From a virus (Duplodnaviria; Heunggongvirae; Uroviricota; Caudoviricetes), in the IMG/VR virus record IMGVR_UViG_2562617057_000011, positions 1 through 46,003 of that record: a DNA stretch of 46,003 nucleotides. One strand, written 5' to 3'. Below the pieces are notes generated by a model. It saw only the letters and a list, made by a program, of their open reading frames with translations, ran no database searches and was not told the origin of the DNA. Positions 5,833 through 21,110 of this stretch are shown here, piece after piece. How positions within the stretch are numbered: the stretch's first letter is position 1; every line of letters begins with the position of its first letter. A program made the translations under genes and the position numbers.

Positions 5833-6225
5833 TCAGAATGGTTTTGTTGCCATCAGTTCGTAATATCCGGCGCTCCATGTGTCATATTTTCTGAACCATT
5901 TTTCTGTATACTGTTTCCTGGCGATGAGTCTGCGCAGTCGTCTGATTGTTCGCTGGTGTGCGCGGGTATACTCTGTGGTTGATTCTCCACGTTTCCATAT
6001 CTCATTCCCGTTGAAGATAAAACGCTTGTCAGGATGGCGTTGTCGGAATCCTGAACGTTCAAAAGCGCGGGTGGTCATAAAGAATGCCAGGTAACGAATT
6101 GCCGTTTTTCGGGTGAGGCATTTTTTTGTTCTTCCGTGGCGTGTTACAAAAAATAACGGGCCGACGGGTGTATCATGTTTCTGTAATGCCTGGTCAATGG
6201 CGCTGGCGGTGCGGTTGTCGATCAT
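5833..6225 (-). CDS. hypothetical basic protein, 130 aa
   Basis: ORF with ATGA overlap to the upstream gene; Arg/Lys-rich; no family recognised. Confidence 0.55.
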   Translation of the reverse strand: MIDNRTASAIDQALQKHDTPVGPLFFVTRHGRTKKCLTRKTAIRYLAFFMTTRAFERSGFRQRHPDKRFIFNGNEIWKRGESTTEYTRAHQRTIRRLRRLIARKQYTEKWFRKYDTWSAGYYELMATKPF

Positions 6226-6440
6226 TTCTTTATTTCCCCCGAATAACGTTCATGACTCATTACTTCCCAGTTCCGGCCGTCGTCTTTCGATAACAGCCGC
6301 CAGCGACGGTTAACCTTCAGACTGAGATATCCGTTGCGCTGTATCCGATGCGGGAATATACATCGGCATCTGTACCGCCGCAGGACCAGCAACGCCTGCT
6401 GGTGGACCCACTCAGGAATTCGTGTTGCTGTTAATGTCAC
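6222..6440 (-). CDS. hypothetical protein, 72 aa (start uncertain)
   Basis: ORF in an operon-like array; its 5' end overlaps the upstream gene by 29 nt, so the true start may differ. Confidence 0.35.
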   Translation of the reverse strand: MTLTATRIPEWVHQQALLVLRRYRCRCIFPHRIQRNGYLSLKVNRRWRLLSKDDGRNWEVMSHERYSGEIKK

Positions 6441-6627
6441 TGGTTTCCTCCTGAGCAGGTGCTGTTATCTGATACCCCGCTCTTTCTGCCAGCCATATGA
6501 ATGTATCCATGCTGGCAATCAGCTCTCCATCGCGGACTTTGCAGACATCTGTTACCTGGCCATTTTCAATTGTCATAACGATCTGCACTTTTTCGTGCAC
6601 AACAGATACAGGGGATAAATTAGCCAT
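6412..6627 (-). CDS. hypothetical protein, 71 aa
   Basis: ATG at 6627 overlaps the upstream stop (TGATG); GGAGG Shine-Dalgarno. Confidence 0.5.
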   Translation of the reverse strand: MANLSPVSVVHEKVQIVMTIENGQVTDVCKVRDGELIASMDTFIWLAERAGYQITAPAQEETSDINSNTNS

Positions 6628-6986
6628 CAGTTAATTCCTCCGCTGATATATTTTTCTTTCGCGTAATCAATAACCTCTTGTAAAAGGTTGTCTATAATTA
6701 ACTTTCCGGTTTCAGCCTGGTATTCAGTATGTTGATTAATCCCGATAGCATTCTGGTATGCAGTTCGGATTTCTGTTTCACCCTCCACTCGACCCAATTC
6801 ACCACGGGTAATACCTTCAAAGCGCAACAGCAACTGGTTTATAAACTGTTCTGTTATTTCTATGGTCGTAATGTTCCCATCCAGAAGGTCAACAATAAGC
6901 AGATCACCACCTGTTTTACGTTTTATTCGATGGAGTGCCGCAACAGCTATACGGCGACGATATGTATTAATGGGTTCATGTGTCAT
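6627..6986 (-). CDS. hypothetical protein, 119 aa
   Basis: ORF in the same array; start immediately after a 37-codon upstream ORF. Confidence 0.55.
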   Translation of the reverse strand: MTHEPINTYRRRIAVAALHRIKRKTGGDLLIVDLLDGNITTIEITEQFINQLLLRFEGITRGELGRVEGETEIRTAYQNAIGINQHTEYQAETGKLIIDNLLQEVIDYAKEKYISGGIN

Positions 6987-6989
6987 TTG

Positions 6990-7103
6990 TTATTTCCCGT
7001 ATGCTTTACGCAGAAATAAGCAGGCAATATGCATGTAATTTTCACCGTATTGTGCAATAAGGCTGGCGGTCTTGTGTGATGCCATATTCTTTATAAAAGT
7101 CAT
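6990..7103 (-). CDS. possible 37-aa small protein (below ORF-track cutoff)
   Basis: ATG at 7103 with AGGAGG Shine-Dalgarno 7 nt upstream; stop 6990-6992 sits 3 nt before the next start. Confidence 0.3.
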   Translation of the reverse strand: MTFIKNMASHKTASLIAQYGENYMHIACLFLRKAYGK

Positions 7104-7318
7104 AATAAAGCCTCCTGTGGATTAAGGTTGTAACAATCCCCGGCGATAAAACCGCAATAAACGTTCAGGGCATATTTGTTGTTATTGCGCTAATTCTTTT
7201 TCAACAGCGGCTTTTGCATATTCACATGCAAAATTCAGAATTTCACTGCCAAGTGTTTTTGTTTCGTTATTACTGGACGTATGTAACACCTGTGTTGCAT
7301 GCAATAAATGATAAACAT

Positions 7319-7531
7319 TTACCGCAAATGAATCAGGCTCCAATCATCTTGCTGTGAGGTTGTTTCTGTCATTGCTCCTGAAGTACATGCGAGCCTGTTT
7401 TTGACAATTCTCTTTCCTCTAATCACTATATCGGCAACATCTATTGCCTTTACAACCTCCGGGAGAAGTTCCTGGTTTGTATAATCAAAGTTATCAACAT
7501 GGAGAACAGTTATGTTTTCGAACTTTTTCAT
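7319..7531 (-). CDS. hypothetical protein, 70 aa
   Basis: ATG at 7531 with GAGGA Shine-Dalgarno; AT-rich surroundings. Confidence 0.5.
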   Translation of the reverse strand: MKKFENITVLHVDNFDYTNQELLPEVVKAIDVADIVIRGKRIVKNRLACTSGAMTETTSQQDDWSLIHLR

Positions 7532-7659
7532 GGCTTCCTCAGCTGACTTATATGTTCTGCTATATAGCGAGTCTCAGAAGTGTTTTCATATTGAGACTGT
7601 TTCCGCAATGATTGATAAAAATGTTCGCATGTACCTTGAGGGGCGAAGCGGCGATTATG

Positions 7660-8163
7660 TCACCATTGGTATTGGTTCTTCCGTAGAAGAGCTTCGCGAG
7701 ATAAGGAGCAAACTTGTTGAGATGCGTTATGGTGTTGCTGCTCCTCACTTTTTGGTTGCACCGGAGGAGTAACCGCGCCAGTTAACAGCCACATCGGATC
7801 GCAGCCAAGAATATTTGCCAGTGGGATAAGCATACTGATAGTTGGTTCATACTCTCCGCTCTCCCACTGGATGATGACTTCTTCATCGAGATCGAGCAGC
7901 CTGGCGAGTTCGGCGGTTGTTAAGCCGCAGGCTTCGCGTTGGGTGCGAAGACGGTTGTTGATTGCAGAATTTTTGTTCTGTAAAAGCATTGCTGACGATA
8001 GCTTTCTGGATATGCTATTTGTCATATCCCATGCCAGTCCTGCGCATGACTCTATATCGCTAGAGAGCGTAGCATCTGGTGTTGCTTTTGCTATTAGTGT
8101 AATGAGGCTGCCGAGGTTTTTCAGTTCTTCGAGACAGTCAAGAGTTGTAGCTTTATTGATCAT
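7660..8163 (-). CDS. XRE-family HTH DNA-binding protein, 167 aa, first gene leftward of the OL-like operators
   Basis: Cro/C1-type HTH motif (LTTAELARLLDLDEEVIIQWESGE...) in the central part; start abuts the operator region. Confidence 0.65.
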   Translation of the reverse strand: MINKATTLDCLEELKNLGSLITLIAKATPDATLSSDIESCAGLAWDMTNSISRKLSSAMLLQNKNSAINNRLRTQREACGLTTAELARLLDLDEEVIIQWESGEYEPTISMLIPLANILGCDPMWLLTGAVTPPVQPKSEEQQHHNASQQVCSLSREALLRKNQYQW

Positions 8164-8205
8164 GAGATGATACCCCAGTTACGAACTTTGTTTCATGGTA
8201 ACTAA

Positions 8206-8242
8206 GGTATCAAAGCATGGCAAGTAGTTTTTGATACTTTGG
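8206..8242. promoter_or_regulatory. OL-like operator region with repeated TTGATACTTTGG motif
   Basis: TTGATACTTTGG at 8231-8242 and an inverted copy GGTATCAAAG at 8206-8215 just downstream of cI; the same motif recurs upstream of cI. Confidence 0.5.
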
Positions 8243-8259
8243 TTTCTTTTTGTATCTGG

Positions 8260-8916
8260 TCAGAAAATATCCCACCTGGCATCAACCACAACACCTACTA
8301 TTTCGCAATCATTGTCCATTTCTATGATGGGATATTGTGGATTAAGGGGCTTTAGAAACGCCTTCCCCATTTCAGAAATATATTTTTTGAATGTTGCTTC
8401 ATTGGTGGATTTTTTTCTGGCGATGACGTAACACCCTGAAAAAACTTCTTTATCTGGATTGACAAGGATCGACATTCCTTCAGGAAATGTTATTCCTATA
8501 GGCGAAGTCATTGAGTCTCCGTGTACTTCCAGCCAGAAGCCCCTCTCACCAGCGTATTTTACAGAATGCCTCCAATTATCCTGATCATACATGTTGTAGT
8601 CATCACCTGCAGTTGCGAATAATCCTGCCTGAACCCAGTTAATTACAGGGTAAGAGTGTGCTGTGTCTCTCTGGGGACAGCTCTTAACATTATTTTCCCA
8701 ATACTTACCTTTTTCATCTCCGTTCTGAAGCCACTGCGGTGAACACTGCAGTGCCGCTGCGACTTTAAAAAGCGTGTCACCGTTGAAACTTTTTGTAAGA
8801 CCTTGCTCGGCTTTACTGATTGCAACTCTGGTGACCCCAGCTTTTTTAGCCAACGCATCTTGCGTTAACCCAGCTTTTTGTCGTGCGTTGATGAGGCGTT
8901 CACCTAAAGATTTCAT
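8260..8916 (-). CDS. cI: CI-type prophage repressor (XRE HTH plus S24 LexA-like peptidase domain), 218 aa
   Basis: N-terminal HTH, C-terminal S24 peptidase-like domain; ATG at 8916 with AAGGAG Shine-Dalgarno; divergent from a cro-like gene. Confidence 0.9.
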   Translation of the reverse strand: MKSLGERLINARQKAGLTQDALAKKAGVTRVAISKAEQGLTKSFNGDTLFKVAAALQCSPQWLQNGDEKGKYWENNVKSCPQRDTAHSYPVINWVQAGLFATAGDDYNMYDQDNWRHSVKYAGERGFWLEVHGDSMTSPIGITFPEGMSILVNPDKEVFSGCYVIARKKSTNEATFKKYISEMGKAFLKPLNPQYPIIEMDNDCEIVGVVVDARWDIF

Positions 8917-15459: not shown

Positions 15460-16856
15460 CAAACCCGACAAATCCGGCGTGGCGTAATGATGACCTGGAA
15501 GGTGCAGTGATTGGCGCGTTTTTTCTGCGTGGGGCTGATCCGGAAGTGATGGATATTCTGGCCACGCTTCCGGCGGATGTATTTTTTGTACGCCAGTACC
15601 GGGATATTTACGCAGGGATTTGTAGACAGGCCCGTGTATCCGGTGTGATTGACCCCGTACTGCTGTGCAATGAGATGCCGGAACTAGCCCCGGTGATTAC
15701 CGACACCGGACGTAAAACCTGGGTGAAGTCTTCACTGGAGCACTATGTTGCAGCGTTACGGCGCAATGCTGCATTGCGTGATGCAGAAAAAACACTGAAT
15801 GAGGCGCTGCAGAAATTACGTGATGCGCATACCTGTGAAGCAGCTGAAGATGCCCTGAAGGATGCGCACAATATGATGGCCTCATTGTCGACGGAAAAGG
15901 GCGTCATTCAGCCGGTACATATTGATGATGTGCTTCCGGAAGTGGTTGAGCGTGTTGAATGCCGGAATCAGGGGCTGGAGAAATCCAGGACGTTGATGAC
16001 CGGTATTGATGAACTGGACGCAAAAACAGGCGGTATGGAGCCCGGAGACCTGGTATTCATTGCCGCCCGTCCTTCGATGGGGAAAACCGAACTTGCGCTG
16101 GACATCATCGACAAGGTGACTGAGCAGGGGCATGGTGTGCTTCTGTTCACCATGGAGATGGCGAACATCCAGATTGGTGAACGTATGGTGTCTGCGGCTG
16201 GAGGGATGCCAGTATCACGCCTGAAATCTGTGGCTCACTTTGAAGATGAAGACTGGGCGCGTTTCTCACAAGGGGTGGGGCGGATGACCGGGCGCAATAT
16301 CTGGATGGTGGACCAGGCGAACCTGACCATTGATGAGATATGCGCAACAACGAAACACCATCTGATTAAACATCCGGAAACGGCGCTGGTGGTGGTTGAT
16401 TATCTCGGGCTGATAAAAACCCGAACCACGGGGCGTCATGACCTTGCCGTGGGTGAAATCTCAAAGGGGCTTAAAGGCCTGGCAAAATCCGGTGGTTTTC
16501 CGTTGATTGCGCTGAGCCAGCTCTCCCGCGGTGTGGAGTCCAGACCCAATAAACGTCCCATGAACTCAGACCTGAAAAATTCCGGAGAAATAGAGGCGGA
16601 TGCAGACATCATTCTGATGCTTTACAGGGATGAAGTGTACAACCCGGATACGCAGGCCAGGGGCATCGCAGAAATCAATATCACGAAACAACGTAACGGT
16701 TCTCTGGGAACGATTTACCGGCGTTTTTATAACGGACATTTTCTGCCTGTGGACCAGGAAAGTGCACGGGTGCTTTCCACTCCCATGAAGCCCGGCAATC
16801 CGCGCAGATACAGTAATAAACGAACTGACAGCAGTAAGATGGAGCGTTTCTTTTGA
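15456..16856 (+). CDS. DnaB-family replicative DNA helicase, 466 aa
   Basis: RecA-like helicase core (ARPSMGKTELAL, DYLGLI motifs); ATG at 15456 overlaps the upstream stop; GAGGTG Shine-Dalgarno. Confidence 0.9.
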   Translation: MTNPTNPAWRNDDLEGAVIGAFFLRGADPEVMDILATLPADVFFVRQYRDIYAGICRQARVSGVIDPVLLCNEMPELAPVITDTGRKTWVKSSLEHYVAALRRNAALRDAEKTLNEALQKLRDAHTCEAAEDALKDAHNMMASLSTEKGVIQPVHIDDVLPEVVERVECRNQGLEKSRTLMTGIDELDAKTGGMEPGDLVFIAARPSMGKTELALDIIDKVTEQGHGVLLFTMEMANIQIGERMVSAAGGMPVSRLKSVAHFEDEDWARFSQGVGRMTGRNIWMVDQANLTIDEICATTKHHLIKHPETALVVVDYLGLIKTRTTGRHDLAVGEISKGLKGLAKSGGFPLIALSQLSRGVESRPNKRPMNSDLKNSGEIEADADIILMLYRDEVYNPDTQARGIAEINITKQRNGSLGTIYRRFYNGHFLPVDQESARVLSTPMKPGNPRRYSNKRTDSSKMERFF

Positions 16857-17110
16857 ACAACCAGACAATGACTTTTACCCCTGAACAATTGCGTAAACAC
16901 GCGCAGGAAATGCTGCGTCATGCTGAACAACTCGAAAAAACGGGCATAACAAAAGACGCTATCCGTAAAGATATGGTACCCGCGCTTCGGGAACTGATGC
17001 AGGCGAAGCATCGCGCACAGAAAGCAGTAGATGAGCTGGTGGACTGTGTGGCAGAGCTGGAAACCAGAGTCGGAAAGTTTGAAAAACTGGTGCAGGAGGT
17101 GCTGCGCTGA
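16853..17110 (+). CDS. hypothetical coiled-coil protein, 85 aa (non-ATG start uncertain)
   Basis: ORF between helicase and Q; predicted helical; ORF track start is TTG, next ATG at 16868. Confidence 0.45.
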   Translation: MNNQTMTFTPEQLRKHAQEMLRHAEQLEKTGITKDAIRKDMVPALRELMQAKHRAQKAVDELVDCVAELETRVGKFEKLVQEVLR

Positions 17111-17481
17111 TGCGTGATATTCAAATGGTTCTTGAACGTTGGGGGGCATGGGTGGCAAATAATCACGAGGATGTGGAATGGTCATCTGTTGCTGCAGGTT
17201 TTAAGGGATTAATCCCTTCGAAAGTAAAATCCCGCCCGCAATGTAGCGATGACGATGGCCTGATCATTAGCTCTGCGATGACAGTTCTTAAGAAAAAGGA
17301 ACCGTATCAATACGAATTACTGGAAATGTATTATGTGTATGGGGTTACATTACGGGCGTTGGGGGTAAAACTGGGGATATCACTTAATCAGGTTGTTATC
17401 AGACTGCAGAAAGCTGAAGGGTTTATTGACGGTTGTCTGGCAATGTTGGGGGTATCTTTAGAAATTGATTGTTACATATAG
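17110..17481 (+). CDS. Q: late-gene antitermination protein Q-like, 123 aa
   Basis: Sequence recalled as matching prophage Q-family antiterminators (MRDIQMVLERWGAW...); GGAGGTG Shine-Dalgarno; sits before the late/lysis region. Confidence 0.75.
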   Translation: MRDIQMVLERWGAWVANNHEDVEWSSVAAGFKGLIPSKVKSRPQCSDDDGLIISSAMTVLKKKEPYQYELLEMYYVYGVTLRALGVKLGISLNQVVIRLQKAEGFIDGCLAMLGVSLEIDCYI

Positions 17482-17520
17482 TAATAAATTCAATCAAAGT
17501 AAATAATCATATTTTATTAT

Positions 17521-17553
17521 AACCTCCTGATGATACCTGTTCATCGGGAGGTT
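17521..17553 (+). promoter_or_regulatory. 13-bp-stem hairpin that sequesters the ribosome-binding site of the next gene; possible tR-prime-like element
   Basis: AACCTCCTGATGA-TACCTGT-TCATCGGGAGGTT; the 3' arm contains GGGAGG, 3 nt upstream of ATG 17557; AT-rich promoter-like sequence precedes. Confidence 0.5.
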
Positions 17554-17556
17554 ATT

Positions 17557-17913
17557 ATGGATAAAAATGTAGAGCATGTATTAGTTGATGCAATTGAAAA
17601 TAAGCAATCTTTAACAGTCGTTTACTTGGGAGGGAGCCAGCCCGGAACATTAAGGAATATTTCTCCGATTAGTATAAATGGGGATAAATTGCGGGCAAGA
17701 TGCCATAGTTCTGGAGCAGTAAAGGTTTTCAATCTTGGGAAAATACAGTTACCCAGTGACTCCTGCGCGGTATCTATGCACTATGGAGATTTAGAAGTTA
17801 AAGCTTATGAGACGATGCAGAGCGTAAATGACAACTTTCATGCCCTTTATCCTGAAGGTCGATGGGGTGTTGATTTTAATGAGCATCGCTTTGCTTTATT
17901 TGATTTTTTTTAA
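17557..17913 (+). CDS. hypothetical protein, 118 aa (possible WYL/SH3-like fold, speculative)
   Basis: ATG with GGGAGG Shine-Dalgarno; AT-rich island downstream of Q; no confident family. Confidence 0.5.
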   Translation: MDKNVEHVLVDAIENKQSLTVVYLGGSQPGTLRNISPISINGDKLRARCHSSGAVKVFNLGKIQLPSDSCAVSMHYGDLEVKAYETMQSVNDNFHALYPEGRWGVDFNEHRFALFDFF

Positions 17914-17940
17914 AACGGGAAACGAAAAAAAACGGCATTT

Positions 17941-18174
17941 ATGGCAATTGAGTTCAGGGAAAGAGATGAAGAGAAAATAATAACAGGTGTAACAATTGAT
18001 ATTGGTATATCTGGAACAGTGATTTCTGAGAAGTCCCGAATCCCAAAAAGACGACCATGGGTAGTGGTTGGTCCCGAACACGGAGAATACAGTACTTATT
18101 CAACTTTGGACAAGGCTGCTACAGCGTTTTTTGAGAGGCTTTCGTTGATAGCATCCGGCCTGGAAGATAATTGA
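17941..18174 (+). CDS. hypothetical protein, 77 aa
   Basis: ORF follows the 118-aa gene in the same AT-rich island; weak ribosome-binding site. Confidence 0.35.
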   Translation: MAIEFRERDEEKIITGVTIDIGISGTVISEKSRIPKRRPWVVVGPEHGEYSTYSTLDKAATAFFERLSLIASGLEDN

Positions 18175-18303
18175 TTTTATGTTTGGTATTCAGAGTTCGC
18201 CGTGCTTAAGAAAGTCAAGATTCTAAAAATACTGAATGAGCTACTTGTGTTATAACAAAAATGCTATTAGTGTGTTAAGAGTGGTTACTTCGCCACACAA
18301 CTT

Positions 18304-18329
18304 AAACCCGCCACTGAGCGGGTTTTTTG
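18304..18329 (+). terminator. intrinsic terminator
   Basis: AACCCGC-CACTGA-GCGGGTT hairpin followed by TTTTTT. Confidence 0.65.
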
Positions 18330-18450
18330 TACCTGTAAACCTGGTGCAGTACAGTAAACACGCTGGTGGTCGTGAATACTGACTTTTTATCTTGCTGGCT
18401 TTTTAGACAAGAGTTATTGGTATGTCATGTTAACCAGAAGGGAAAAAGAC

Positions 18451-18654
18451 ATGCTAAAACAGCAAGATATGACAGAAACCGCCGCCGCAGTCCTTCATTT
18501 CTTACCTGCTGACAAGTGGGTAACGCCACGCATGATGACGAGAACTACCGGAGTAAGCGAAGCCCGGTGCCAGTTAATACTGACTCAGTTAGTTCTGGCG
18601 GGTCTGGCGAAGGATAACGGCGGGTACGGGAATAAATTCAGACGCTGCCAGTAA
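18451..18654 (+). CDS. small putative winged-helix DNA-binding protein, 67 aa
   Basis: ORF upstream of the methyltransferase gene; second ATG preferred because of a purine-rich SD-like sequence. Confidence 0.4.
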   Translation: MLKQQDMTETAAAVLHFLPADKWVTPRMMTRTTGVSEARCQLILTQLVLAGLAKDNGGYGNKFRRCQ

Positions 18655-18804
18655 TGGCGGTTTCCTGCTGTGAAAATGGGCGGCTGGTGGGTGTTGGTAG
18701 CACCTGCCAGCCATTCGCTCATGCTTACTGGTCACAAGCGAACCACGGCCCACTGCTTTAGCGCAAAAGCAGAGTGAGCCTACCAGAGTTACGCTTACTG
18801 ATCC

Positions 18805-19863
18805 ATGAAAAATACTGTATAAATAAACAGTATTGATTTAATCAACGCTGATTGCCTGCATTTTATTCAGTCCCTGCCTGATGATTCCATTGACCTGATT
18901 GTTACAGATCCGCCGTACTTCAAGGTGAAACCCAACGACTGGGACAATCAGTGGAAAGAGGACGAAGATTACCTTAAGTGGCTGGACCACTGTCTGGCCC
19001 AGTTCTGGCGGGTGTTGAAACCTTCCGGAAGTCTTTACCTGTTCTGTGGTCATCGCCTGGCATCTGATATCGAAATCATGATGCGTGAACGCTTTAATGT
19101 GCTGAACCACATTATCTGGGCGAAGCCGTCCGGGCGCTGGAACGGGTGCAACAAGGAAAGCCTGCGGGCGTATTTCCCCGCCACAGAGCGCATTCTGTTC
19201 GCGGAACATTATCAGGGGCCGTATCGTCCAAAAGATGATGGCTATGAGGCGAAGGGCAGGGCACTGAAACAGCATGTGATGGCTCCGCTGATTTCTTACT
19301 TTCGTGATGCGCGTGCGGCTCTGGGGATAACGGCAAAACAGATTGCTGATGTCTCAGGAAAGAAAAACATGGTGTCGCACTGGTTCAGTGCCAGCCAGTG
19401 GCAGTTACCGAACGAGGATGATTACAGAAAACTTCAGGTGCTGTTTGCCCGGGTGGCAGAAGAGAAACATCAGCGGGGTGAACTGGAAAAGCCACATCAC
19501 CAACTGGTCAGCACATACAGTGAGCTGAACCGGCAGTATGCCAGCCTGCTGGAAGAGTACAAATCCCTGCGGCGTTATTTTTCCGTATCGGCAGCCGTTC
19601 CTTATACGGATGTCTGGACGCACAAGCCTGTGCAGTATTATCCGGGCAAACATCCCTGTGAAAAACCGGCAGATATGTTGCGGCAAATGATTACCGCCAG
19701 CAGTCGTCCGGGTGACCTGGTTGCAGATTTCTTCATGGGGTCCGGTTCGACAGTCAAAGCAGCGATGGCGCTGGGGCGTCGTGCAATTGGTGTCGAGCTG
19801 GAGGCTGAACGTTTTGAGCAGACCGCAAGAGATGTACAGAATTCAATCAGAAAGAGAGAGTGA
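18805..19863 (+). CDS. beta-class DNA amino-methyltransferase (N6-adenine or N4-cytosine), reading frame interrupted by TAA at codon 6; possibly a pseudogene
   Basis: DPPY motif near the N-terminus and FMGSGST SAM-binding motif near the C-terminus; ATG 18805 then MKNTV, TAA at 18820-18822, frame continues INSIDLINADCL..DPPY; ORF track starts at GTG 18925, after DPPY. Confidence 0.7.
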
Positions 19864-19903
19864 TATTGCTGAATTTATTCTGTAACGTTATCATTATGTT
19901 ATC

Positions 19904-19979
19904 GGCCCTTTAGCTCAGTGGTGAGAGCGAGCGACTCATAATCGCCAGGTCGCTGGTTCAAGTCCAGCAAGGGCCACCA
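19904..19979 (+). tRNA. tRNA with anticodon CAT (Ile2-like, lysidine-type; Met not excluded), CCA encoded
   Basis: 76-nt cloverleaf folded by hand; very similar to E. coli ileX as recalled; anticodon loop CTCATAA. Confidence 0.85.
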
Positions 19980-19980
19980 A

Positions 19981-20054
19981 CCACCACTAGCTCATCCGGA
20001 TAGAGCATCAACCTTCTAAGTTGACGGTGCGAGGTTCGAGTCCTCGGTGGTGGG
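19981..20054 (+). tRNA. tRNA-Arg, anticodon TCT
   Basis: Cloverleaf with acceptor CCACCAC/GTGGTGG, anticodon loop CTTCTAA, T-loop TTCGAGT; no encoded CCA. Confidence 0.8.
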
Positions 20055-20059
20055 CCAGC

Positions 20060-20135
<76 letters not shown>

Positions 20136-20138
20136 TAT

Positions 20139-20213
<75 letters not shown>

Positions 20214-20827
20214 GCGAGATTTGAGACGAAGGTTGTTATTTGCACTGACACAATATTGTGTGGGAATGTCTGACTCCTTACCATCTCCTGTTCTGTGATG
20301 TTGTTTTGTTGCAGTTCCAGTGCTCTTTTTTCAGCACCAGAATGGTGCATTGTCGGTCAGGTTACGTAGTGAACCTCTGGCAGGGGACTGATGATTCATC
20401 ATTCTGGTGTTGTAAATATCTCTTCGGACAACTTACAAAATATTCTAAGCAAACCCCGGGAACACACTCTTAACTGCCTTGGCTGGCGGTTTTTTGTACA
20501 GCGCTCGGTATGTGTGAGCTGGAAATCAGATTTTGCATGGACTGGAATCATGCTGTTATTTAGGGGCGAAGAACTGGCTTTTTCTTCCGCCTTCTCACCA
20601 GTAACGATTAGAAAAATAATGAAATGCCCCCCTCCGGGGAGGAGGACCGTAGAAAAAAGGACCCGCCAGCAAAAACATTGGGGATGAACAGCTTTCGCTA
20701 CTCAGATTGCTGGCGGGTAAAGTTCCTCATGAATTAAGAATGCTACGCGATCTTTTTTAATGGAAATGAAAATTATTGTCAATTAGTCGTGCGTGTTTTT
20801 TCATACAATATTGGTAAAGGTGATTCA

Positions 20828-20860
20828 GGCCATCAGAGTTTTGCTGATGGCCTTTTTTCT
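20828..20860 (+). terminator. intrinsic terminator upstream of the lysis genes (tR-prime-like)
   Basis: GGCCATCAG-AGTTTTG-CTGATGGCC hairpin followed by TTTTTT, about 35 nt before the holin start. Confidence 0.65.
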
Positions 20861-20894
20861 TTCCGATAGCACAGGTCTGTCGGGGGGGCGGGAT

Positions 20895-21110
20895 ATGTAT
20901 CAGATGGAAAAAATATCAACAGGCATTGCCTACGGCACCTCCGCCGGCAGTGCCGGCTACTGGTTTTTGCAGTGGTTGGATCAGGTCAGTCCATCACAGT
21001 GGGCTGCGATTGGTGTGCTGGGAAGTCTGCTTCTGGGGCTTCTGACTTATCTGACGAATCTGTATTTCAAAATAAGAGAAGACAAGCGTAAGGCTGCGCG
21101 GGGAGAGTAA
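20895..21110 (+). CDS. S: class II holin (phage 21 S-type pinholin), 71 aa
   Basis: Sequence matches the recalled phage 21 S protein ([39 protein letters not shown]...); dual-Met start MYQM. Confidence 0.9.

Follow-up and report, generated by a model that had tools for sequence, protein, structure and literature searches.

A WYL-family gene split by a stop codon behind a Q21-type antiterminator gene in a tailed-phage sequence

WYL domains are mainly familiar as the switches by which transcription factors of the DNA-damage response or of anti-phage defence sense single-stranded DNA (ssDNA), as in DriD, PafBC, CapW and BrxR. DriD of Caulobacter crescentus (PDB entries 7tzv and 7u02) is a transcription activator with a helix–turn–helix (HTH) domain at its N terminus, and CapW and BrxR, repressors of the cyclic-oligonucleotide-based anti-phage signalling system (CBASS) and of bacteriophage exclusion (BREX), respectively, combine a winged HTH (wHTH), a WYL and a WCX domain. 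Here, we describe a WYL-family gene of a tailed phage (Caudoviricetes; IMG/VR record IMGVR_UViG_2562617057_000011), the window being the whole stretch of 46,003 nucleotides that was analysed. The gene lies at 17557–18174 on the plus strand, as do the Q gene, the hairpin, the candidate promoter elements and the terminator discussed below, and in this window it is interrupted by a stop codon. Unlike DriD, its intact protein begins at the WYL helix; unlike CapW and BrxR, it has neither a wHTH nor a detectable WCX domain, and its gene stands alone rather than beside a defence operon for it to regulate.

The initial annotation had described this segment as an island of two unrecognised genes. Both open reading frames (ORFs) are present as it reported, ORF1 of 118 residues (17557–17913) and ORF2 of 77 residues (17941–18174). 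Read-through translation shows that they share one frame, of 205 codons when intact, which is interrupted only by a TAA (17911–17913), the 27 nt between the ORFs being nine sense codons. The 205-position profile of PHROG 8498 is matched by ORF1 over positions 1–118 (E = 7e-70) and by ORF2 over positions 129–205 (E = 3e-41). ORF1 encodes the WYL barrel (residues 1–64), a linker, and the C-terminal domain as far as its first helix and two strands; ORF2 corresponds to residues 129–205 of the intact protein and supplies the remainder of this α/β domain. Instead of an island of two genes there is a single gene with a nonsense mutation: the two ORFs are its halves, and the stop cuts the protein inside its C-terminal domain.

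Intact alleles are found in bacterial chromosomes. The 819 bp from 17482 to 18300 occur at an identity of at least 99% in 53 of 5,426 complete Escherichia coli genomes, chromosomal in all of them. In E. coli S88, codon 119 is AAA (Lys) and the locus is one coding sequence (CDS) of 205 residues, WP_000360285.1, labelled ‘WYL domain-containing protein’. Over these 819 bp the window differs from S88 at four bases: one in the hairpin upstream of the gene, two that are synonymous, and an A-to-T substitution at 17911 that turns Lys119 into the premature stop (K119*); apart from K119*, the window protein is that of S88. A 96-bp probe located the exact TAA allele in four of 52 complete E. coli genomes (CFSAN029787, RMDEC332, RMDEC364 and VL46), where the Prokaryotic Genome Annotation Pipeline (PGAP) calls two CDSs. 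The remaining 48 show one mismatch to the probe, the AAA codon of Lys119, with a single CDS among the matches listed. This lysine lies within the motif F-K-N-G-K, and at least 90% of 46 diverse family members keep it. Homologs at 31–35% identity are single full-length proteins with conserved motifs in both halves, and all diverged homologs are undivided ORFs. When S88 is compared with a 72%-identical homolog, the ratio of nonsynonymous to synonymous substitution rates (dN/dS) is 0.23 overall, 0.21 for codons 1–118 and 0.32 for codons 129–205; both parts therefore evolved as coding sequence of one ORF.

That the locus might nevertheless be a two-component cargo island, for example a toxin–antitoxin or sensor–effector defence pair, would agree with the two CDSs that PGAP annotates in the four TAA-allele genomes. 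We regard it as very improbable, given the shared frame with a single stop between the ORFs, the undivided form of every diverged homolog and of 48 of the 52 E. coli loci, and the position of the stop, which replaces a nearly invariant lysine in the middle of a predicted domain. Moreover, the sequence upstream of ORF2, aaacgaaaaaaaacggcattt, when read directly contains no recognisable Shine–Dalgarno sequence, and therefore independent translation of ORF2 is unlikely. A sequencing or assembly error in a gene that is intact in the organism has even less to commend it and seems to us hardly credible: the site does lie at a T7A5/T8A4 homopolymer junction, but the change is a substitution and not a change of length, and four independent complete assemblies share exactly this allele. 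Read-through or programmed recoding of the TAA was also considered and rejected, the stop being a plain substitution in one lineage and slippage at the T8 run being unable to restore the frame.

The window copy is most likely a recent pseudogene, or recently inactivated allele, and is probably non-functional. K119* is absent from all 52 IMG/VR loci, several of which bear other disruptions: one has a K122* stop, another stops at codon 132, one lacks its 5′ end and one carries an insertion sequence, IS1, in the loop of the upstream hairpin. Two database proteins (P0003 and P0006) also appear frameshifted. Inactivation of the gene has thus occurred repeatedly, and annotation pipelines report a pair of genes in place of a single broken one. 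The intact gene already bears automatic labels only, ‘unknown function’ for PHROG 8498 and the RefSeq name quoted above; both entries belong to the same family as the window copy (99–100% identity), which differs from them by the K119* split.

The initial annotation had also ventured, with low confidence, that the 118-residue protein recalls a WYL/SH3-like barrel. This guess is supported by a WYL domain at residues 1–64. Two AlphaFold models, built from five sequences (mean predicted local distance difference test score, pLDDT, 73.5) and from 57 sequences (pLDDT 85.7), have the same layout, in which an N-terminal helix (residues 3–14) precedes barrel strands at residues 19–23, 31–41, 44–49 and 55–59, and the Sm/SH3-like five-stranded barrel after a helix that characterizes WYL domains is found. 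Unlabelled figures recorded by known protein are 10.0–11.4 for BrxR, 10.5–11.2 for the DriD C-terminal region, 10.3–11.1 for CapW, 9.2–10.2 for PafBC and about 7 for Hfq. The Pfam WYL family matches 18 of 57 family members (E ≤ 0.01), and a longer relative (P0182) reaches 29.7 bits. In addition, a 46-sequence family profile aligns residues 8–40 to DriD (E = 5e-4), laying the family motif YxGGSQPGxxRxIxP (Tyr23, Ser27 and Arg33) on DriD YEGGSTPGRTREVTP (Tyr168, Ser172 and Arg178). In crystal structures of DriD with ssDNA, these three DriD residues form hydrogen bonds to phosphates of the ssDNA backbone (PMC9186387). Tyr23, Gly26, Ser27, Gln28, Pro29, Gly30, Arg33 and Phe58 are invariant in the 57 members and Lys56 is nearly so; the ligand-contacting residues expected in strand 2 and the 2–3 loop of a WYL domain are thus represented by Tyr23, Ser27 and Arg33. 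The position of DriD Arg176 is not kept, being Thr31 in this protein, and Lys56-x-Phe58 is probably the counterpart of DriD Arg204-x-Trp206, judging from strand order alone.

The rest of the protein has no such parallel. A poorly predicted linker part (residues 69–75) leads to the C-terminal domain, which consists in the models of a helix (residues 87–97), a first set of strands (104–107, 111–117 and 123–133), a low-confidence loop (134–167), a second set of strands (168–171 and 178–181) and, at the C terminus, a long helix (184–204). This order, α-β-β-β-loop-β-β-α, differs from the β-α-β-β-α-β-α of the DriD WCX domain, to which there is no sequence match, and a C-terminal WCX dimerization domain is not recognized here. 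The α/β domain matched no Pfam family and, by sequence, no solved chain; a profile of this domain alone retrieved no WYL-regulator chain from the PDB even at E = 10. There is no HTH match in Pfam for the protein or for 57 relatives, and the protein begins only two residues before the WYL helix. Searches of NCBIfam gave no family match and those of the BFVD viral fold library no convincing one. PADLOC-DB 2.0 returned weak matches to Cas-associated WYL models at most (E = 5e-4 to 6e-3) and no defence-system model.

The family is an accessory gene of mobile elements. An exhaustive profile search gave 957 cluster representatives at E ≤ 1e-3 and 192 at E ≤ 1e-30, nearly all of 187–210 residues, and a search with a five-sequence alignment gave seven genome loci; the carriers are prophages, phages, integrative and conjugative elements (ICEs) and islands. 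These homologs are not the core late, structural or lysis genes whose presence would have spoken against the idea of cargo. In temperate phages, the family tends to occupy the lysogeny module. The gene of a marine prophage type (L010/L011 and L077) begins 15–17 bp past a CI-like repressor gene, which itself diverges from a cro-like gene; the position directly after the CI gene is that of rexAB in lambda. A P2-like prophage of Serratia has a version with an N-terminal BRCT fusion between its C repressor and integrase genes, BRCT being a domain familiar from DNA-damage and repair proteins, and Pseudoalteromonas phage PY3 has a 369-residue version between its integrase gene and that of a LexA-family repressor. 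One relative has an extra C-terminal part of about 170 residues, without a significant Pfam match and with a sub-threshold UDPGT and a weak WYL match. The relatives adjacent to repressor or integrase genes (L013, 7001–7921; L027, 2006–3115; L010, 8001–8570; L077, 4004–4579) come from three unrelated temperate phage types. Other members are found near a pRha gene in a phage, in ICEs and in islands of small unknown genes, and one lies in an ICE defence island beside genes for an RNase_T-BRCT protein, a UvrD-like helicase, TerB, a BrxC/D-like ATPase and an RES–Xre pair. Literature searches for phage-encoded or stand-alone WYL proteins turned up only host regulators. The fold of the sensor domain is known; its combination with an unknown C-terminal domain, without an HTH and in prophage lysogeny modules, is previously uncharacterized.

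We favour, with moderate confidence, the explanation that the locus is a single broken gene and that the intact protein is a ligand-sensing WYL accessory of prophages. As its WYL pocket keeps the ssDNA-contacting residues of DriD (Tyr23, Ser27 and Arg33, and probably Lys56 and Phe58), we propose short ssDNA or a related nucleic acid as its ligand. In the lack of an HTH, the ligand signal could be relayed through protein–protein contacts of the C-terminal domain, and the position of relatives beside prophage repressor and integrase genes points to an accessory role on the side of the lysogen, where the protein might sense DNA damage or infection. The family would then be of interest for keeping a sensor and its ligand-contacting motif without a DNA-binding domain, on prophages and ICEs and often beside a repressor gene. 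If ssDNA binding is true, mobile elements use for their own ends the sensor of host regulators, by a different output route. A broader proposal, which we offer tentatively and think rather unlikely, is that proteins combining an HTH-less WYL domain with a novel C-terminal domain are widespread nucleic-acid sensors of mobile elements that act by protein–protein contact rather than promoter binding, are co-expressed in temperate phages with the repressor or integrase, and link ssDNA, whether from damage or from a superinfecting genome, to RecA-independent control of lysis and lysogeny or to the exclusion of competitors. Such a class would represent a new output mode for the WYL sensor.

Several observations weigh against the explanation that we favour. 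The 118-residue product retains the whole barrel and might have some activity. The protein itself scores below threshold for Pfam WYL (PF13280; 18.1 bits compared with a cutoff of 21.8, E = 0.0027, residues 8–64). The profile alignment to DriD is confined to residues 8–40, leaving the Lys56/Phe58 region outside, and the DriD ligand pocket also uses linker and WCX residues, without a proven counterpart here. No conserved partner gene or effector was found in the family contexts examined. The E. coli gene follows Q and is not beside a repressor gene; the lysogeny-module context is that of relatives that are distant, at about 30–35% identity. A consensus promoter scan found no plus-strand promoter for the WYL gene and nothing at 18245–18303, where we place a candidate late promoter (see below). 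Finally, a search by protein accession found no mention of the protein in the literature searched.

Other functions for the intact protein deserve consideration. It shares a sensor fold and ligand motif with the wHTH–WYL–WCX regulators, lacks their DNA-binding domain and is carried by phages and ICEs, all of which would suit an anti-defence decoy that soaks up the ssDNA signal or forms dead heterodimers with BrxR or CapW, thereby blocking BREX- or CBASS-type defences. Heterodimerization is unsupported, however, since the C-terminal domain has neither sequence nor clear fold similarity to WCX; the repressor/integrase neighbourhood suggests expression in the lysogen rather than early in the lytic cycle, and nothing similar was found in BFVD or in the literature searched, so that we hold this role to be improbable. 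A prophage exclusion or defence factor at a Rex-like position, which would detect the replication intermediates of a superinfecting phage and use the C-terminal domain to block them, has in its favour the rexAB-like place of the gene in L010 and L077, its presence in the C–int operon of the P2-like prophage and the defence island with TerB, BrxC/D-like, UvrD and RES–Xre genes. It is possible, yet we think it unlikely: the protein has no recognizable effector domain, PADLOC gives only the weak WYL matches, the protein is not listed as a known system, and its repeated independent inactivation shows that it is dispensable.

The third possibility is that the protein couples DNA damage to the lysis–lysogeny switch, its ssDNA-bound form acting on the repressor or on Q-dependent late expression. 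The gene adjoins repressor genes in the three temperate phage types, one relative is fused to BRCT, and the enterobacterial prophages show a strict linkage of the gene to one Q allele. This linkage is more simply explained by a gene trapped between Q and its cognate promoter, as set out below, and the prophage bearing the broken allele is otherwise well conserved; we consider a role in the switch doubtful, with only a small chance of being right. A ligand-sensing accessory of prophages stays our preferred reading of the intact gene, and we turn to the DNA in which it is embedded.

The AT-richness reported in the initial annotation is borne out by windowed GC content, which is 0.393 for 17557–18330 compared with 0.514 for the whole window. 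The low-GC stretch starts at about 17272, inside the Q gene, rather than at 17557. The 985 bp from 17272 to 18256 have a GC content of 0.382, and of all windows of this size in the 46 kb only 0.2% are as low; the lowest-GC 985-bp stretch of all begins at about 17281. The GC content at third codon positions of the WYL reading frame is 0.33. A second low-GC stretch, at about 6000–8900, is also among the lowest 985-bp windows; it contains small minus-strand ORFs and lies in the left part of the prophage, presumably the early or immunity part.

The Q gene (17110–17481) encodes a 123-residue antiterminator of the Q21 family, matching PF06530 over the full profile (E = 4.5e-48) and the Q21 chains of PDB entries 6jnx and 6p18 (E = 2.7e-10), as is expected of a Q21-type cassette. 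It is a mosaic. Its first ~160 bp (17110–17271) are 83–93% identical to many Q alleles in E. coli genomes and phages, and its 3′ two-thirds (17272–17481), including the sigma-region-4-like DNA-binding part, are unique to the ~52 genomes that also bear the WYL gene. The AT-rich module at 17272–18256 thus comprises the C-terminal coding part of Q, the intergenic region, the WYL gene and its 3′ flank, and has been inherited as a unit in all 52–53 complete E. coli genomes that have it; no phage of INPHARED contains it, distant search mode included. In a lineage at 72–73% protein identity, everything from the start of Q past the methylase gene is collinear with the window at ~78% nucleotide identity, in the order Q, WYL gene, terminator, ORF and methylase. 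This is therefore an old arrangement and not a recent insertion.

Downstream, the segment had been said to end at a strong intrinsic terminator (18304–18329). The terminator is real by folding, with an 8-bp stem and a 6-nt loop (18304–18325) followed by a run of six T, three of which can pair with AAA; its ΔG is −13.8 kcal/mol (z = −2.4) and two of 200 shuffles fold as well. It is nevertheless conserved backbone DNA and not the island's own, since phages without the island keep it (the Shiga toxin, Stx, phages of the Stx2c type, mEp460, Ayreon, cdtI and PhiR40_1), and in L070 the stem is retained through compensatory changes. A consensus terminator scan missed it, probably because an A–U extension of the stem uses up the T run. 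It is probably the tR′ of this Q type.

A candidate late promoter and leader would lie immediately upstream at 18245–18303, a stretch that comprises TTGTGTTATAAC and includes an extended −10-like element, TGtTATAAC (18248–18256), a second −10-like element in tandem with it, TGTTAAGAG (TGtTAAGAG; 18273–18281), and a small hairpin, GTGGTTACTTCGCCAC (18281–18296). In the lineage at 78% nucleotide identity, TTGTGTTATAACAAAAA is 100% conserved and the remaining 3′ flank is shortened. Homology to mEp460_4F5, PhiR40_1, PhiR55_1 and 569R4 resumes at 18256/18257, and that to the Stx2c phages, mEp460 and Ayreon only at 18305, the terminator itself. The phages sharing the sequence from 18256/18257 have PF06530 Q proteins, whereas Stx2c has a PF03589 Q; the Q of Ayreon, not itself scanned, is of the same large type (about 250 residues) as that of Stx2c. 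The 48-bp leader from 18257, with the second −10-like element and the hairpin, is common only to phages with a PF06530 Q and therefore goes with the Q type. The candidate elements at 18245–18329 co-occur with a PF06530 Q in four phage lineages, and those upstream of the terminator are absent in the PF03589-Q phages.

For Q21, the Q-binding element (QBE) lies within −40 to −1 of the late promoter PR′ and a pause element just downstream (bioRxiv 10.1101/651190). From these comparisons we infer that this Q type has its late promoter, its sigma-dependent pause element and its tR′ at about 18245–18329, an arrangement that, as a candidate, would yield a short leader RNA of about 40–65 nt; no QBE direct repeat was identified at the candidate promoter, and searching the literature for the leader motif gave nothing relevant. 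A PR′ directly after Q was unsupported, as hand searches of 17440–17525 gave no acceptable −35/−10 pair, and the conserved 18245–18303 was preferred. A late promoter beyond the cargo also fits mEp460_4F5 and PhiR40_1, which have intrinsic terminators 5–75 bp past Q and reverse-strand cargo before the shared leader. The WYL gene would thus have Q on one side and, on the other, the probable late promoter, leader and terminator belonging to that Q type. As Q's DNA-binding end and the promoter cognate to it presumably must be inherited together, with the WYL gene trapped between them, both the strict Q linkage and the boundaries of the module would be explained: the 3′ end of Q, the accessory gene and the candidate late promoter appear to form one inherited unit, hence a cargo tied to one Q allele.

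How does this compare with known morons? The slot after Q is indeed variable, as the initial annotation proposed in calling it a cargo hotspot, and holds a gene for a 141-residue lipoprotein in the Stx2c phages and Ayreon and a reverse-strand gene in mEp460_4F5 and PhiR40_1. Like stx and the lipoprotein gene, lambdoid morons of the region from Q to the lysis genes, the WYL gene is variable cargo in the interval from Q to the late genes; it comes and goes between conserved genes of related phages and is atypical in composition, with a GC content of 0.38–0.40 compared with 0.51. Unlike them, it is tied to a specific Q allele and has no own promoter that we could identify, a consensus scan giving none upstream, and its downstream terminator is the backbone element shared with phages that lack the gene. 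The WYL gene is probably upstream of the late promoter, whereas stx lies downstream of PR′ and tR′.

Between Q and the WYL gene, a hairpin of 15 bp with a 7-nt loop occupies 17519–17555 (ΔG −25.8 kcal/mol, z = −6.6, matched by none of 200 shuffles). Its 3′ arm contains the Shine–Dalgarno sequence of the WYL gene, GGGAGG (17546–17551), and it ends 2 nt before the ATG. Pairing is retained in the S88 variant, where a G–C pair becomes G–U, and the lineage at 73% preserves 12 of 13 core pairs; the IS1 insertion mentioned above is in the loop in IMG/VR prophage L045. The hairpin may terminate the Q transcript or act as a block that keeps translation of the WYL gene low.

The segment was correctly placed between Q and a DNA methyltransferase gene, although a conserved 75-residue ORF (18427–18654; PHROG 331, unknown function) also intervenes, which makes the methyltransferase gene (18805–19863) next but one to the WYL gene. 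This ORF follows the terminator in all related phages compared and has weak matches to MarR/TrmB-like wHTH domains (E = 0.06–0.17). The methyltransferase gene has its own AAA-to-TAA nonsense change at codon 6 (18820–18822), so that two adjacent accessory genes are hit by the same kind of change. The T at 18820, an A in CFSAN029787 and RMDEC332, and a V10I change at 18832 are the only two differences in 1,570 bp. In-frame initiation could next occur at GTG (18925), which falls past the DPPY motif, and therefore the methyltransferase is probably also dead. An Rfam scan of 16500–21000 (E ≤ 1) matched neither the hairpin nor the leader and reported only four tRNAs, which ARAGORN assigns as Met(CAT), Arg(TCT), Thr(TGT) and Gly(TCC) and which lie just past the methylase gene (19904–20213). 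In Stx phages, tRNA genes occupy the matching position upstream of stx. The first of the four is labelled tRNA-Ile by RefSeq in near-identical genomes and, if this label is right, would be a lysidine-type isoleucine tRNA.

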